Shown: positions 34,854 through 63,669 of the stretch, piece after piece
How positions within the stretch are numbered: the first letter of the stretch is position 1
Layout: every line of letters starts with the position of its first letter
Translations under genes and position numbers: made by a program
Notes under the pieces: model-generated
Seen by the model: the letters and a program-made list of their open reading frames with translations, nothing else
The model's database searches: none
Told to the model about the DNA's origin: nothing
Origin: Candidatus Aenigmatarchaeota archaeon
Lineage (GTDB): Archaea > Aenigmatarchaeota > Aenigmatarchaeia > QMZP01
Direction: 5' to 3'
Length of the DNA stretch: 64,000 nucleotides
NCBI GenBank assembly: GCA_043824495.1
Contig: JBDRSV010000010.1
Location: forward strand, 1 to 64,000

Positions 34854-34878
34854 TTATTGGCATACTGGCACGGTCCTA
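34854..34878 (+). promoter_or_regulatory. Dispersed motif TTATTGGCA-TACTGGCA-CGGTCCTA upstream of a TATA box
   Basis: Also present at 57608-57640 with one extra 8-nt unit. Lies 9 bases before TTTTAAAC. Confidence 0.6.
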
Positions 34879-34933
34879 CCCTCAGAGTTTTAAACAAAGC
34901 ATACTATTTTAATCTAAGTGCTAACAAGAATCT

Positions 34934-36139
34934 ATGATATACTCACACTCTCGTTTGAAATGTTTTGAACAGTGTCCATACAAGTTTAAGTTGAAGTATA
35001 TAGAAAAAATAAAACCCAAACTTGAGCAAAGTATAGAATCTTTCCTTGGTTCTAGAGTTCATGATACATTAGAAAAGCTTTACAATGACTTGAAATTTAA
35101 GAAATTTAATTCTCTAGAGGAATTGCTAATACATTTCAATGATGAATGGAAAAGAAATTGGAATTCAGAGATATTGATTGTTAGAAAGGATTATGTACCA
35201 GAGAATTATAGGAAGATGGGAGAACAATTCATAACAGATTACTACAAAAGATATTATCCTTTCAGGGATGGAAAAATTATTGGTTTAGAAAAAAGAATTA
35301 TGATCAATCTAGATTCAGAAGGAAAATATAAACTCCAAGGTTTCATAGACAGATTAATGACGACGGGTGACGGAAAATATGAGATTCATGATTACAAAAC
35401 CAATGCAGATCTTCCTCTAGAAGAATATATGAAAGAAGATAGACAACTAGCTTTGTATGCTCTTGCTGTCTTACATGGATATCAAGATGCAAATAAAATA
35501 AAATTGATTTGGCACTTCTTAGCTACAGATAAAGAGATTGTAGTAGAGAAAACAAAAGAAGAATTAGATAAGCTAAGAAAAGATACTATTGAATTAATAC
35601 AGAAAATAGAAAATGAAAGAGAGCATAAGACTCGAGTTTCTAAATTATGTGATTGGTGTGAGTTTAGAGAGCAGTGTCCTGAGTGGAGTCACATAGTTAA
35701 AACAGAAAATCTAGAACCAAATAAATTCTTGGATGAGCCTGGAATCAAGCTAGTGAATAGGTACGCGGAACTACAAAATGAAAAAACTAAACACTGTGAA
35801 AAGATTGATAAAGAAATGGATCAAGTAAAAGAAGCACTGATAAAAGTTTCAGAAAAAGAGAATGCTTCTGTAATCAATGGATCAGACCACATTGCAAAAA
35901 TATGGATAAAAGAGTGTTCGAAACTTCCTGGAAAAAATGATCCGACACGTGATGATCTTGAAAAAATACTAAAAGCTTTTGGTGAGTGGAATAGTGTTGC
36001 ACAGTTGGATACTTTCAAATTATCCAGAATGATTGATGATGAGCAAGTACCTCCAGACGTAATGAAAGAGATAGAGAAGTTCATAGAAAAAACAAAAGTA
36101 GAAAGGATTTACTTGAGAAAGAAGAATGAAAAAGTCTAA
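34934..36139 (+). CDS. PD-(D/E)XK RecB/AddB/Cas4-like nuclease with Fe-S staple
   Basis: CPYKF, GFIDRL, IHDYKT, QLALYA and CDWCEFREQCP motifs, plus a C-terminal extension. Confidence 0.9.
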   Translation: MIYSHSRLKCFEQCPYKFKLKYIEKIKPKLEQSIESFLGSRVHDTLEKLYNDLKFKKFNSLEELLIHFNDEWKRNWNSEILIVRKDYVPENYRKMGEQFITDYYKRYYPFRDGKIIGLEKRIMINLDSEGKYKLQGFIDRLMTTGDGKYEIHDYKTNADLPLEEYMKEDRQLALYALAVLHGYQDANKIKLIWHFLATDKEIVVEKTKEELDKLRKDTIELIQKIENEREHKTRVSKLCDWCEFREQCPEWSHIVKTENLEPNKFLDEPGIKLVNRYAELQNEKTKHCEKIDKEMDQVKEALIKVSEKENASVINGSDHIAKIWIKECSKLPGKNDPTRDDLEKILKAFGEWNSVAQLDTFKLSRMIDDEQVPPDVMKEIEKFIEKTKVERIYLRKKNEKV

Positions 36140-56532: not shown

Positions 56533-57567
56533 ATGTATGAAGATAAGCCAATAATCAAGAATTCAGAAGTCTTTACAGACGAATTTCTCCCAAACACAAT
56601 TAACCATAGAGATGGGCAAATGAAAGCAGTGAGAGATGATCTAAATCCACTTCTAAATAATAAACCAGGAAGAAGCGTGTTCATTTTCGGTGCTCCAGGG
56701 ACAGGAAAGACTTCAACATCTAAATACATAATAAATGAGCTAGCTTCACAGTCTGTTTTTACAAGTTACATAAATTGTTGGAATACGAGTTCAAGATTCA
56801 AAATATTATACACAATTCTTCAGAATTTTGGAGAATCTCTGTCTATACACACAAAAGGAACTCCAACGCATGATCTTTTAGAATTACTTAAGAAAAAAGT
56901 CCAAGAAAAACAAGCAGTGATAATCTTAGATGAAGTGGATCAATTAGAAGATGATAAAATTTTGTATGATTTAATTATGATAGCAAATGTTAGTGTAATT
57001 CTAATAGCTAATTCAGAAACAGCATTACATGACAATGATCCTAGAATAAGAAGTAGATTAGCGTCTGCAGATACAATAGAATTTCCTAAATACAAGTCAG
57101 ATGAAATAACAGAGATACTCAAAGAAAGAGCAGAACTAGGTCTAGTTCCTGGTGTTGTGAAAAATGCACAACTAGAGAAAATAGCAGAGAGATCTTTAGG
57201 TGATTCTAGAATTGCAATTAATATTCTTAAAATAGCTTCGGAAGAAGCTGAGAAAAAAGATGAAGGAAAAATAACCGATGATGACGTAGAGAAAGCTTCT
57301 CCAAAAGCGATAGAACAAGGAAAGAAAAAGAGTATAGAAACATTGAATGATCACCAGAAATTGATATACTCTGTAATTAGTATGGGTGTCAAAACAGAAC
57401 CTTCTGAACTATACACAAAATATCAAGAAGAGTGTAAAAGAAAAGATATAGAACCTGTGAAAGACAGAACAATCAGAAAATATTTAGACAAAATGATACA
57501 ATATAAGTTAATTCTAGCTGAAGGCGAAGCTCGTTGGAGAACTTATTCTATCCAGAAAGCGCAATAA
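56533..57567 (+). CDS. cdc6: Orc1/Cdc6 replication initiator AAA+ ATPase
   Basis: GAPGTGKTS, YINC, LDEVDQL and DPRIRSRL motifs, C-terminal wHTH. Confidence 0.93.
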   Translation: MYEDKPIIKNSEVFTDEFLPNTINHRDGQMKAVRDDLNPLLNNKPGRSVFIFGAPGTGKTSTSKYIINELASQSVFTSYINCWNTSSRFKILYTILQNFGESLSIHTKGTPTHDLLELLKKKVQEKQAVIILDEVDQLEDDKILYDLIMIANVSVILIANSETALHDNDPRIRSRLASADTIEFPKYKSDEITEILKERAELGLVPGVVKNAQLEKIAERSLGDSRIAINILKIASEEAEKKDEGKITDDDVEKASPKAIEQGKKKSIETLNDHQKLIYSVISMGVKTEPSELYTKYQEECKRKDIEPVKDRTIRKYLDKMIQYKLILAEGEARWRTYSIQKAQ

Positions 57568-57570
57568 ACT

Positions 57571-57640
57571 CTTATTGGCACGAGTATCTAAACCACATCA
57601 ATAGAGCTTATTGGCATACTGGCATACTGGCACGGTCCTA
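57571..57640 (+). promoter_or_regulatory. Two copies of the TTATTGGCA-(TACTGGCA)n-CG motif upstream of the dead recombinase
   Basis: CTTATTGGCACG at 57571 (n=0) and 57607-57640 (n=2), then TTTATAT at 57649. Confidence 0.6.
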
Positions 57641-57685
57641 GGATCCAGTTTATATCTGATGAAAATCTACTCTAAAGTGATCCCT

Positions 57686-58423
57686 ATGCGTCTAGTACCC
57701 CAACTCTTAGATAAAATCGAACCCTTCGTTGATGAATTTAGGCAGTGGCCTAAAGGAGACATTCCTTCTTCCAAAGAAGGTAAGTGGCTTCAAGTTCAAA
57801 TGTCTCAATTCACACCACCTTTTGTCATTGAGAAGAATTATGAAAATAGTTTCATATCTTCTTCACATGTGGTAGATACAGAATTACTTGATGCTACCTT
57901 GAAGAGAAAAACAAATCTTCTCTCCAAGCAAGAAATAAGAATACTTATTGGTTCAACAAAAAACTTGAAACATAAAATATTATTACAACTATTGTATGGT
58001 TGTGGTCTTCAGATATTCGAAGCTATTGAGCTAAAGATAGATGACATCAACCTGAAAGAGTGTAGAGTCAACGTAGGAACGAGAACAGTTCCTTTATCAA
58101 CAAAAATGGTTCCACAACTGGAATTCTTGTTTAGATACACACAAAAACCAGATAATAATCACCTGTTTCCCAACTGGAACGGAGGTCACGTAACACCAGA
58201 AGATGCAGAACAGATCGTGAAATATGCATTCGCTGCTGCTGGGTTGAGACCAGTTTCCCCACACGCTCTTAGACACAGCTTTGCTTCACACCTCCTCGAA
58301 TACGGCGTCAGAATAGGAATAATACAAACACTTCTAGGAAATTATGATGCAACAAAAATGAGACACATGAAAATTTCAGAAGAAATGATCAAGAACGTGA
58401 AGAGTCCTCTGGATAAACTTTAA
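57686..58423 (+). CDS. Catalytically inactive tyrosine-recombinase paralogue
   Basis: GLQ replaces GLR, GKGxK loop deleted, LLGN replaces LLGH, no nucleophile Tyr. HALRHS and KSPLD retained. Start could be 57659. Confidence 0.85.
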   Translation: MRLVPQLLDKIEPFVDEFRQWPKGDIPSSKEGKWLQVQMSQFTPPFVIEKNYENSFISSSHVVDTELLDATLKRKTNLLSKQEIRILIGSTKNLKHKILLQLLYGCGLQIFEAIELKIDDINLKECRVNVGTRTVPLSTKMVPQLEFLFRYTQKPDNNHLFPNWNGGHVTPEDAEQIVKYAFAAAGLRPVSPHALRHSFASHLLEYGVRIGIIQTLLGNYDATKMRHMKISEEMIKNVKSPLDKL

Positions 58424-58430
58424 TTTTCAT

Positions 58431-58649
58431 ATGAGTCACAAAATCATAAGATATAGCAAACATACCATTAGAAGAAAATTAGAAAGAAACATTTCAGAAG
58501 AAGAGATAGAAGAAACAATCAGAAACCCTAATTATGTTTTATCTTCATTTGAAGAAAGAAAAATAGCTGTTAAACAAATAGCAGAAAGAACTATTCATGT
58601 AATCTACAATGAGGAAAAAACCCATATAAATATAATAACCGTATATTAA
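58431..58649 (+). CDS. DUF4258-like putative toxin
   Basis: YSKH..R..ER.ISEEEIEETI..P...IITVY pattern. Confidence 0.8.
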   Translation: MSHKIIRYSKHTIRRKLERNISEEEIEETIRNPNYVLSSFEERKIAVKQIAERTIHVIYNEEKTHINIITVY

Positions 58650-58656
58650 ATGTAAT

Positions 58657-58863
58657 ATGAAAATGACATATGACAAAGAGGTGGATGCAGCATACATTTA
58701 CCTAAAAGACACAATAAAAAAAGGCGAAGTAAAAAGCACACAAACCATGAACGAAAACATCATCCTAGACTTCGACAAAGATAAAAAACTCATCGGAATC
58801 GAAATTCTTTCTGCAAGTAAAGTAATACCCAAAAAGTCAGTAAAAGCACTACAAACAGCCTAG
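58657..58863 (+). CDS. DUF2283-like putative antitoxin
   Basis: YDKEVDAAYI...IILDFD....LIGIEIL.AS pattern. Confidence 0.88.
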   Translation: MKMTYDKEVDAAYIYLKDTIKKGEVKSTQTMNENIILDFDKDKKLIGIEILSASKVIPKKSVKALQTA

Positions 58864-58883
58864 TTTCTTTCTCACACGATAAT

Positions 58884-59720
58884 ATGAAAGAACTCTTAAT
58901 ACGCTTGGAAAATGAACTAAAATCTCGCGGCTTCAGCAGAAAGACCGTAAAATCCTATTTATTTCACGTTTCAACTTTCTTGCGTCACATATCAACAGAT
59001 TCCACACAAGAAGAGATACAAAGATATTTCATACAATTAGCAGAAAACGCAGATCCCAGAACAGTTAATCTGCGCATAAGCGCAGTTAAATTCTTTTACA
59101 AGAACATCCTACACAGAAACCTCTACATAAACTACATGAAGAGACCCAGAAAAATACCTGAAGTTTTAACTGTACAAGAAGTCATGTATATGATATCGTC
59201 CACGACTAACCCAAAACACAGAACTATAATTGAAATGTTATACGGCTGTGGACTCCGGGTATCAGAAATAACTAAAATAAAAAAATCTGACATAAACATT
59301 CCAGAAAGAATAATATTCATAAGACAAGGAAAGGGAATGAAAGACAGAATTGTTCCTCTTCCTCTTACACTAAAAGAGATTGTATATAATTTCAGTGTAG
59401 ACGACTGTCCATATGTTTTCCAATCAGAAAGAGGAGGAAAGCTAACGGAAAAAACAATACAGGTGATAGTGAAAAATGCAGCCAAGAAAGCCGAAATAAA
59501 AAAGCGCGTATCTCCACATACTCTCCGTCACAGCTATGCAACCCATCTCCTCGAATCAGGAACAGATATTCGTATAATTCAACGTCTTCTAGGTCATTCC
59601 TCGGTCAAAACCACAGAACTCTATACTCATGTTTCAAGAGCTCTTCTGAAAAACATAAAAAGTCCTCTAGACTTCGTAAAAACATTCAATATAGAACATT
59701 CTAATCCAAACAATGCGTAG
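58884..59720 (+). CDS. Xer/IntI-like tyrosine recombinase (intact) without the IntI-specific insertion
   Basis: N-terminal SAM-like ELKSRGFSRKTVKSY. GLRVSE, GKGMKD, HTLRH and LLGH...TTELY all present. Short YVFQSERGGKL segment where IntI carries its extra domain. Confidence 0.93.
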   Translation: MKELLIRLENELKSRGFSRKTVKSYLFHVSTFLRHISTDSTQEEIQRYFIQLAENADPRTVNLRISAVKFFYKNILHRNLYINYMKRPRKIPEVLTVQEVMYMISSTTNPKHRTIIEMLYGCGLRVSEITKIKKSDINIPERIIFIRQGKGMKDRIVPLPLTLKEIVYNFSVDDCPYVFQSERGGKLTEKTIQVIVKNAAKKAEIKKRVSPHTLRHSYATHLLESGTDIRIIQRLLGHSSVKTTELYTHVSRALLKNIKSPLDFVKTFNIEHSNPNNA

Positions 59721-59737
59721 AAACACTAGTTATAAGA
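59716..59737 (+). other. attI-like site (core GTTATAA at 59729-59735)
   Basis: GTTATAAGA pairs perfectly with TCTTATAAC at 61685-61693. No upstream R''/L'' arm found. Confidence 0.7.
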
Positions 59738-59791
59738 AATCGTTGGTCTTGATTGGTTAAAGGAGATCGCCGCCATTTGGCTTCGCCAAAG
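59729..59791 (+). repeat. Cassette leader repeat, copy 1
   Basis: Identical to 63578-63630 apart from a 10-nt insertion. Contains TAAAGGAGATCGCCGCC and the hairpin TTTGGC-TTC-GCCAAA. Confidence 0.9.
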
Positions 59792-59923
59792 ATAGCCTGC
59801 CTTCGGCAGTATATAGAAAGGGTATTCTTTGTTTTCGAGGACATAGGGAAGTAGTACTCATAAATGGGCATAATAAAGATTAAAAATAACACAACACCTA
59901 TATACTACTAAGGGATTGATAAT

Positions 59924-60845
59924 ATGAATCAAATAGAAATTAATAGAGAAAATCTTGAAAAGAGACTTAAGCAAGTAGGGCTTAGTTCAGATATATACAG
60001 CGTCAAACCAAAAAAATTTATTAGAATTAATACGAGACATCCAGTGAAAATAAGAGAATTACAGGAAAGACTTAATAGAAATTATGGAATCGAAGTAGAA
60101 TTTATAGAAACATGTATTGAGGAAATTTATGAATCAACAAACTCGGATATTGGAGGGTGGATTAGTGGTAAAAAGAACGAATTCTTTAATAAAAATTATT
60201 TTATTCAAGATTTAGCAAGCGTTATTTGTGTTAAAGAACTTGATTTAAAAGAGGGTCAATCTCTTCTTGAAACATGTGCAGCGAGAGGTTTCAAGTCTAT
60301 TCTGGCTCATGATTTAACACATGGAAAATTAAGAATAACAGCATTAGATATAGATCCTAAAAAAATATCAAATAATGATGGGATTCTTTAAAAAATTTGG
60401 AATAAATGCAGAAACCCGATTAATGGATTCCACAAAATTTCAAGGTCAAAAATACGATAGAGTACTGGTTGATGCTCCTTGTTCTGGTGAAGGTGTGACT
60501 GTGGTGTATGATGAGAAATTGAGAAGAGATGTTAGTGGATTTGATAATGTTGTGCAATATTCACAAGAAGATGTTGAAAGATTTTCAGAATTACAAGGAA
60601 AACTTTTACAAAGCGGTTTTGACCACTTAAAGAAGAGTGGAATCCTAAATTACGCCACCTGTACCTTGAATAAGATTGAAAATGAAAGCGTAATCCACGA
60701 ATTTCTTCAAAGAAACGGCGATGCTTCAGTTGTTAACTCTAATATTGATAAATATGGTATCAAGCACAAGGTTTCTAATCTAGGGGTAAGAATCTTGCCT
60801 GGAAAAACTAAGGGCTTTTACTTTACAAAAATTATAAGGAGATAA
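59924..60845 (+). pseudogene. RsmB/NOP2 RNA m5C methyltransferase split by a +1 frameshift in an A7 run (60359-60365)
   Basis: ORF1 has motif I-like ETCAARGFKS. ORF2 has VDAPCSG and YATCT. Removing one A gives ...DPKKYQIMMGFF... Confidence 0.85.
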
Positions 60846-61578: not shown

Positions 61579-61595
61579 GGCGGCGATCTCCTTTA
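61579..61595 (-). repeat. Inverted copy of the 17-bp leader motif
   Basis: GGCGGCGATCTCCTTTA is the reverse complement of 59758-59774 and 63597-63613. Confidence 0.9.
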
Positions 61596-63522: not shown

Positions 63523-63584
63523 GACACTCACTACGTTCGTCCTAATTTCCTAAAGGAAACTAGTCTTAACCTCGAATGTTATAA
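63506..63584 (+). other. attC-like site 3 (79 nt)
   Basis: ACTTAAC-AAAAG-ATTAAG-AC ... TTTCC/GGAAA hairpin ... GT-CTTAAC-CTCGAAT-GTTATAA. Confidence 0.85.
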
Positions 63585-63630
63585 GAAATCGTTGGTTAAA
63601 GGAGATCGCCGCCATTTGGCTTCGCCAAAG
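63578..63630 (+). repeat. Cassette leader repeat, copy 2
   Basis: GTTATAAGAAATCGTTGGTTAAAGGAGATCGCCGCCATTTGGCTTCGCCAAAG. Confidence 0.9.
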
Positions 63631-63669
63631 AGGTTTAATATAAATATGAATTAAAACAAAGTTTAATTT

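Follow-up and report, generated by a model that had tools for sequence, protein, structure and literature searches.

The window analysed here, a 64,000-nucleotide stretch of DNA from a Candidatus Aenigmatarchaeota archaeon (positions 1 to 64,000 of contig JBDRSV010000010.1), contains at 57686-58423 a gene for a tyrosine recombinase of the Xer type whose active site has been destroyed. This protein, which we refer to as dead Xer, is very probably a non-catalytic pseudo-recombinase that has been retained by selection. Its frame, described as intact in a preliminary description of the locus, is indeed open throughout, from an ATG at 57686 on the + strand to a stop codon at 58423.

The preliminary description had further pointed out that the frame lies 460 bp 5' of an intact, co-oriented recombinase gene with which it shares an HxLRHS box and a KSPLD tail. 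BLASTP and the aligned residues bear this out, as dead Xer and the neighbouring recombinase, an XerA, are 39% identical over 174 residues (E 3e-32), and dead Xer has retained the HxLRHS box as well as the C-terminal KSPLDxL tail. The four catalytic losses that had been read from the sequence were likewise found at the aligned positions. In detail, Arg-I is replaced by Gln (GLRVSE in XerA, GLQIFE in dead Xer), the GKGxK hairpin, which carries the catalytic Lys, has been deleted (VNV--GTRTV), His-II has become Asn (LLGH to LLGN) and the Tyr nucleophile, found within ELYTHV in XerA, is a His. The six positions R-K-H-R-H/W-Y on which catalytic competence depends therefore read Q, deleted, H, R, N, H in dead Xer, and L, deleted, Y, R, N, H in two orthologues. 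By comparison, the residues at Arg-I, His-Arg, His-II and Tyr are conserved in all 30 XerA-type genes that were obtained from 301 genomes of the phylum, and 29 of the 30 have a Lys aligned at the position of the catalytic Lys. Since dead Xer is devoid of the clamp domain, the Lys hairpin, Arg-I, His-II and Tyr, it cannot recombine DNA.

Membership of dead Xer in the tyrosine recombinase superfamily follows from the PF00589 profile, which is its sole Pfam match (80.5 bits, cut-off 27.1), and from the catalytic-domain fold, while the SAM-like N-terminal domains PF13495 and PF02899 gave no Pfam match in the protein. The best NCBIfam match is the XerA equivalog model NF040815, of which only positions 91-248 are covered with a score of 101 bits, well below the cut-off of 220; the score against the IntI model (TIGR02249 / PRK15417) is 82 bits with a cut-off of 265, so that dead Xer qualifies neither as an XerA nor as an IntI. 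An AlphaFold2 model has a predicted local distance difference test value (pLDDT) that exceeds 90 over most of residues 76-245 but drops around 151-160 and 221-230; it is of poor confidence for residues 1-75. Foldseek matched this model best to archaeal XerA (5HXY and 4A8E, E about 1e-9) and to IntI (2A3V); XerH, XerD and lambda Int were matched as well.

The N-terminal part had been described as an unrelated sequence replacing the core-binding domain. That the domain is gone was confirmed, but the sequence is not unrelated, as the N-terminal peptide V-[DN]-[DE]-F-[RG]..P.G-[DG] is common to active relatives, and what is left of the core-binding domain comes after it in degenerate form. The peptide is present in dead Xer, in both orthologues and in the full-length recombinases P0123, P0126 and P0006, and in weaker form at locus L009, whereas the related genes at L011 and L012 have an N-terminal extension of another kind without it. 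In the active carriers it precedes the core-binding domain; in the dead proteins this domain has been deleted behind it, leaving about 50 degenerate residues in dead Xer and about 20 in the orthologues. Because the peptide was kept while the core-binding domain was deleted, selection acts on the peptide and the catalytic domain but not on the DNA clamp. A frameshifted full-length gene was considered as well and rejected, as the 119 bp between the stop codon of the upstream cdc6 gene and the ATG are too short to hold a core-binding domain.

The best-conserved stretches of the three dead proteins are IQTLLGNYDAT..H, which is the former active-site segment, and the tail S..MIK.VKSPLD.L, and the latter varies little or not at all between dead and active forms. 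The catalytic domain of the dead trio has lost positive charge: its net charge lies between +2 and +6, while 45 active homologues have a median of +12 and none falls below +6. At the N-terminus the two orthologues are acidic (net charge -6 and -7) and dead Xer itself is near neutral (-1). These charges are consistent with a change from binding DNA to binding protein.

A search of 5.8 billion proteins returned two full-length relatives that also cover the N-terminus, P0004 from an NCBI metagenome-assembled genome labelled Woesearchaeota and P0005 from a Logan assembly. They are 50% (P0004) and 46% (P0005) identical to dead Xer and 71% identical to each other. Both carry the same defects: Arg-I is replaced by Leu, the Lys loop is shortened, His-II has become Asn and the Tyr has become His. 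They also have a Tyr at the first His of HxxR. As the defects are common to all three proteins, the inactivation is older than the divergence of the trio. The ratio of non-synonymous to synonymous substitution rates (dN/dS), calculated for the single pair of orthologue loci L006 and L007 as dS to the window copy is saturated, is 0.21 (NG86) or 0.17 (YN00) with a codon bootstrap range of 0.14-0.31, and 0.16 for the catalytic domain alone. The adjacent cdc6 gene, used as a control, gave 0.25. Between the window and the orthologues dN is 0.41-0.48 for dead Xer and comparable, 0.39-0.61, for cdc6. The suggestion that a frame kept intact despite a ruined active site points to selection for a non-catalytic role is thereby strengthened: the orthologous frames are intact, the losses are shared, and in the one pair available dN/dS is clearly below 1 after catalysis was lost. 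Neither an absence of homologues nor neutral decay was found, and the protein evolves under constraint like that of cdc6.

The family is nevertheless very small. When the 301 genomes of the phylum were queried with dead Xer, only active Xer genes were recovered. A profile search of 1.84 billion representatives found the two known clusters at 423 and 371 bits and the next match at 180 bits, and scans for the peptides QTLLGNYD/IQTLLGNY and D[ND][VN]HLFPN in GTDB species genomes and JGI metagenome contigs revealed no further member. The family consists at present of three metagenomic sequences among the billions searched and has no cultured host.

The features around the gene are the following:
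56533-57567, + strand, Orc1/Cdc6 paralogue of 344 amino acids with the Pfam domains AAA_22, Cdc6_lid and Cdc6_C
57608-57655, + strand, conserved promoter box with the segment CGGTCCTAGGATCCAG, a layout that also precedes the orthologues and active Cdc6-linked Xer genes
57686-58423, + strand, dead Xer (pseudo-recombinase) of 245 amino acids, PF00589 only, R-K-H-R-H-Y positions Q/-/H/R/N/H
58431-58649, + strand, DUF4258 protein of 72 amino acids (PF14076, E 8.7e-11) with weak likeness to the BrnT toxin
58657-58863, + strand, DUF2283 protein of 68 amino acids (PF10049, E 6.5e-19), putative partner of the DUF4258 gene
58884-59720, + strand, active XerA-type tyrosine recombinase of 278 amino acids with complete R-K-H-R-H-Y and a SAM-like core-binding domain
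59729-59792, + strand, repeat, candidate recombination site of the neighbouring cassette region (sequence repeats; three matches, chance 0.04)

The 460 bp between dead Xer and XerA thus hold two small genes. Scans for tRNAs and Rfam families found nothing at the dead Xer locus.

The preliminary description had regarded dead Xer as a paralogue paired with the active integrase, a wording that points to a local duplicate. A maximum-likelihood tree of the catalytic domain (48 rows, LG+C20) speaks against this. The dead trio is nested in a nine-row clade of Cdc6-linked Xer proteins (support 100/98), whereas the neighbouring XerA falls, together with its orthologue at L007, into a separate clade of 39 XerA rows (support 100/98). 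As the tree places each in a different clade, dead Xer is not a tandem copy of XerA, and an origin by tandem duplication was rejected. Apart from the trio the Cdc6-linked clade is made up of active Xer genes, and the next-best matches of dead Xer are the active, full-length recombinases P0123, P0126 and P0006 mentioned above and the Xer genes of genomes G178, G067 and G054. All eight clade members with known context (the window, L006, L007, L009, L011, L012, L038 and L039) sit co-oriented and directly 3' of the orthologous Orc1/Cdc6 gene. Dead Xer shares with this clade its position beside Orc1/Cdc6, the promoter box of repeats plus TATA, the monophyly on the catalytic domain and the N-terminal peptide. 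The genome itself encodes two Orc1/Cdc6 paralogues, the second being located on contig C13.

Since the Cdc6-linked gene is the only full-length Xer in G178, G067 and G054, the Cdc6-linked and XerA lineages look like alternatives. Both occur together only in the lineage of the window, and there the Cdc6-linked member is dead. Within the same clade P0126 (L039 6001-6870) has a full core-binding domain, a Cys instead of the Tyr nucleophile and a four-residue deletion after it, which may represent a second, independent loss of catalysis or a sequencing error.

The neighbouring XerA passes the NF040815 model with 225.8 bits (cut-off 220) and contains PF00589 plus the SAM-like N-terminal domains PF13495/PF02899. 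Against TIGR02249 it scores 208.6 bits (cut-off 265), with two matched stretches that skip the IntI insert, and the IntI-specific insert, which lies between patches II and III in integron integrases, is absent from the protein. The spacers between dead Xer, DUF4258, DUF2283 and XerA measure 7, 7 and 20 nt. At L007 the order is the same up to the end of the locus inside XerA, and 4-nt overlaps join the dead Xer and DUF4258 frames as well as the DUF2283 and XerA frames. Because of these short spacers, the overlaps at L007 and the gene order shared with it, the four genes probably form one operon.

Upstream of dead Xer the promoter box comprises three 8-nt direct repeats, TTATTGGCA TACTGGCA TACTGGCA (57608-57632), followed by the segment CGGTCCTA and by a TATA-like TTTATAT at 57649-57655, 30 nt 5' of the ATG; an additional half-box TTATTGGCACG lies at 57572-57582. 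The distance from TTTATAT to the ATG fits an archaeal TATA box with a near-leaderless mRNA, and because of this spacing we favour 57686 as the start over 57659 or over a TTG at 57611, which would lengthen the protein to 270 amino acids. The same layout precedes the dead orthologues and active clade members, the repeats taking the form (T)AGCGGAA in more distant relatives.

Across G000, the genome of the window, the box has a consensus of about 40 nt with two or three 8-nt direct repeats TA(C/T)TGGCA, CG..CTACC and a TATA-like box. Seven sites scored above threshold, compared with none for the reversed-pattern control, and all seven show CTACC and then a TATA-like box downstream. Besides the site at dead Xer these are:
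34854-34895 of the window, 5' of a PD-(D/E)XK nuclease gene at 34934-36139
further sites in G000 at C1:19297, C15:34361, C24:851, C24:3108(-) and C10:71202(-)

The genes found 3' of the G000 boxes are those for the PD-(D/E)XK nuclease, NreA, two LAGLIDADG proteins and a 306-amino-acid protein without any family match, in addition to the dead Xer operon. No frame of at least 50 amino acids starts within about 1.8 kb downstream of the site at C24:851. In G054 and G067 the GGAA version of the box precedes radA, a radical-SAM/HhH protein, a glyoxalase/bleomycin-resistance-like protein, LAGLIDADG proteins and the Cdc6-linked Xer. To judge from its members, the set of box-preceded genes looks like a DNA-repair regulon. 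Since an Orc1/Cdc6 paralogue has been described as a DNA-damage regulator in Sulfolobales (PMC6061795), the adjacent Orc1/Cdc6 is a candidate regulator of the genes behind the box.

The following explanation accounts best for these observations, although as a whole it is tentative and we hold it with somewhat less than even confidence. Dead Xer stems from the Xer-type lineage located directly 3' of an Orc1/Cdc6 paralogue. Within a single small lineage of archaea its core-binding domain disappeared by internal deletion and four to five of the six catalytic residues were lost, and purifying selection has maintained the protein since. It would be expressed as the first gene of the probable four-gene operon, with XerA as the last, from a promoter box that is common to DNA-repair genes. 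Without cutting or clamping DNA, the protein would work as a protein-binding catalytic-domain module. Via the conserved C-terminal tail and the catalytic-domain surface it would dock on the XerA transcribed together with it, either free or in complex with DNA. Such docking would tune when or in which direction XerA recombines, making dead Xer a regulatory 'silent subunit'.

Docking of the C-terminal tail on the neighbouring subunit is established for Cre, lambda Int, XerCD and XerA. Because dead Xer has kept the parts that make subunit contacts and is linked to XerA in the presumed operon, the role of a partner or regulator of XerA is our first choice, a possible one that we nonetheless hold with considerable doubt. 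Several observations weigh against it. At L006 the gene after dead Xer is DUF424 instead of XerA, in a contig that ends 135 nt further on, and dead Xer is accordingly linked to Orc1/Cdc6 at three of three loci and to XerA at two of three. A heteromer with XerA cannot be assumed, because dead Xer comes from the other lineage and is only 39% identical. In addition, a degenerate XerD of streptococci, YnbA, does not bind difSL and leaves recombination by XerS unchanged (PMC1914069). A predicted complex of XerA and dead Xer had a score of 0.22 (mark 0.32) and was not used as evidence either way.

In the main rival reading dead Xer continues a role of the Cdc6-linked lineage that is independent of XerA, its N-terminal peptide and fold binding the adjacent Orc1/Cdc6 or another replication or repair factor. 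Examples would be a feedback on a Cdc6-type protein that controls the repair regulon, or a non-catalytic marking of DNA like that by bacterial XerD in the unloading of SMC. The unbroken position 3' of the Cdc6 orthologue in all eight clade members argues for such a role, as does the peptide, which is common to most active members and survived varied deletions of the adjoining core-binding domain, and so does the promoter box shared with repair genes here and in relatives. Precedents are the damage regulator of Sulfolobales (PMC6061795) and a non-catalytic role of XerD that is cited in PMC11840125. Binding does not follow from gene order alone, however, and in the peptide, for which the model is of low confidence, no motif was recognised. 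We regard this role as rather unlikely, though only slightly less probable than that of an XerA partner. A residual function on DNA, either as a site-specific binding or architectural protein or as an enzyme using the conserved His in place of Tyr at a site of its own, would account for the invariant Arg-II and LRHS box, for the conservation of IQTLLGNYDAT..H and for a domain that is still basic (pI 8.4-9.4). The missing clamp, the deleted Lys hairpin, the lost Arg-I and the halved net charge make this unlikely; moreover, no conserved palindromic site was found beside the gene, where the conserved DNA is the direct-repeat promoter box.

The preliminary description had also proposed that dead Xer might replace the I2 function of integron integrases, and in this form it would act in trans to let an XerA without I2 recombine folded attC-like sites of a cassette array. 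The neighbouring XerA does lack the IntI insert, and repeats do bound cassette-like segments downstream of it, but dead Xer has no I2-like element either: nothing is inserted at the place of I2, and the segment from the Lys loop to HxxR is as long as that of XerA. As the dead lineage is moreover tied to Cdc6 and not to arrays, its active relatives being the sole full-length Xer of their genomes, we regard the proposal as highly improbable. The absence of the core-binding domain and the destroyed active site could finally be those of a functionless remnant. This might be a pseudogene in slow decay, or else the Int(C) half left when a 'suicidal' integrase of archaea was split by its own integration, since Int(C) fragments with the catalytic domain only are known in archaea (PMC8371274). 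Such a remnant would hardly persist as three intact frames at 46-71% identity with a dN/dS of 0.21 and in conserved synteny with the chromosomal cdc6 in three genomes. An Int(C) gene arises by a split at an internal att site with the Int(N) part elsewhere, whereas the native N-terminus and the promoter are conserved here and the gap is internal, which indicates an internal deletion and not a split. This reading is thereby largely refuted and the least probable of all.

The preferred reading, in which dead Xer modulates XerA, could be extended in that Orc1/Cdc6 would run a small repair regulon via the box and the pseudo-recombinase would couple the damage response to XerA as a check or a licence. 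XerA would then be controlled in its resolution of dimers, and perhaps also in exchanging cassettes at the repeat-bounded array next to it. We regard this coupling as unlikely.

Dead Xer has its closest sequence family and the same fold in archaeal XerA, the chromosome-dimer resolvase (PDB 4A8E, 5HXY; NF040815), with the HxLRHS box and SPLD tail in common, but differs from it by the lack of the core-binding domain, Arg-I, Lys, His-II and Tyr. XerC and XerD form heterotetramers with half-of-the-sites control via exchange of the C-terminal tails. Here, too, the genes of two diverged Xer proteins lie together and the tail for subunit control has been retained, which is the basis of the mechanism proposed; XerC and XerD are however both catalytic two-domain proteins with half-sites of their own, while dead Xer has a single domain. 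The closest precedent is YnbA, a conserved degenerate tyrosine recombinase found in streptococci and lactococci beside the single active XerS (PMC1914069). It resembles dead Xer in being conserved with an incomplete catalytic set in an organism with a single Xer recombinase. YnbA lacks the extreme C-terminus and two of the R-H-R-Y tetrad, whereas dead Xer keeps the tail and lacks the N-terminal domain and four positions; dead Xer is in addition archaeal, of another lineage and in a probable operon with an active Xer.

Two further systems are functional analogies only. Int(C) fragments of suicidal (SSV-type) integrases also consist of the catalytic domain and may join reactions of complete integrases (PMC8371274), but they result from a split at attP, keep their catalytic residues and are not conserved genes, unlike dead Xer with its internal deletion, dead site, orthologues and purifying selection. 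The XerD of Bacillus acts non-catalytically as an unloader of SMC at XDS sites (Karaboja 2021, as cited in PMC11840125) and sets a precedent for an Xer protein in chromosome biology without strand exchange. That XerD is a complete protein of the active type and binds DNA resembling dif, in contrast to dead Xer, which nothing ties to SMC. In Thermococcus, XerA is dispensable for the boundary (PMC11840125).

The case of dead Xer is unusually clean, as it combines a traceable active ancestry in the Cdc6-linked clade, losses shared by orthologues, measurable selection and a presumed operon with an active enzyme. Among kinases, proteases and methyltransferases there are well-known cases of catalytically dead paralogues that regulate an active relative, while to our knowledge they are barely documented for tyrosine recombinases and none is known in Archaea. 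We found no published case of an archaeal tyrosine recombinase that is dead yet conserved, nor is any mentioned in the review PMC8371274. If dead Xer does modulate XerA, it would represent a new control of chromosome-dimer resolution or gene-cassette capture in organisms lacking FtsK-type control, and if it couples recombination to the damage response, a 'silent subunit' of recombination with no described counterpart in Archaea. The promoter box itself may mark a DNA-damage regulon of DPANN archaea, a candidate that can be tested in a group for which we know of no regulatory biology.

Downstream of XerA the 64-bp repeat at 59729-59792 begins 9 nt after the stop codon and recurs at 63578-63631, 3.85 kb further on, with a 10-nt indel. 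Its 17-mer core TAAAGGAGATCGCCGCC is found inverted between the two at 61579-61595 (-), and these three copies are the only ones in the window. The repeat bounds cassette-like genes, including toxin-antitoxin pairs, a GNAT and a cupin. Directly after the first copy, at 59924-60845, two adjacent ORFs of 155 and 156 amino acids overlap by 17 nt in different frames.

The starts of XerA genes of the other clade in this phylum are preceded at about 60-90 nt by a conserved dif-like palindrome, e.g. AACATGCTCATATCATGAC TTTGGT CATGATATGATG, at L018, L023, L026, L013, L015, L016, L017 and L010. No such palindrome was found upstream of XerA in the window, and that of the relatives gave only weak matches with 5-6 mismatches in G000, which is 80% complete. 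A dif pattern of the Thermococcales type matched 14 times in the window with 10.7 matches expected and hence gave no signal.

Elsewhere in G000, at L003 (C29:29236-30601), a second recombinase locus encodes a protein of 213 amino acids that consists of the catalytic domain only and has all of R-K-H-R-H-Y. The palindrome TTATATCGTGAG GTTTAC TTTATGATATAA lies ahead of this gene, and behind it comes a degenerate copy of 160 amino acids with an in-frame TGA. Frames of about 200 amino acids with the catalytic domain only are also present in G178, G099, G230 and G054.

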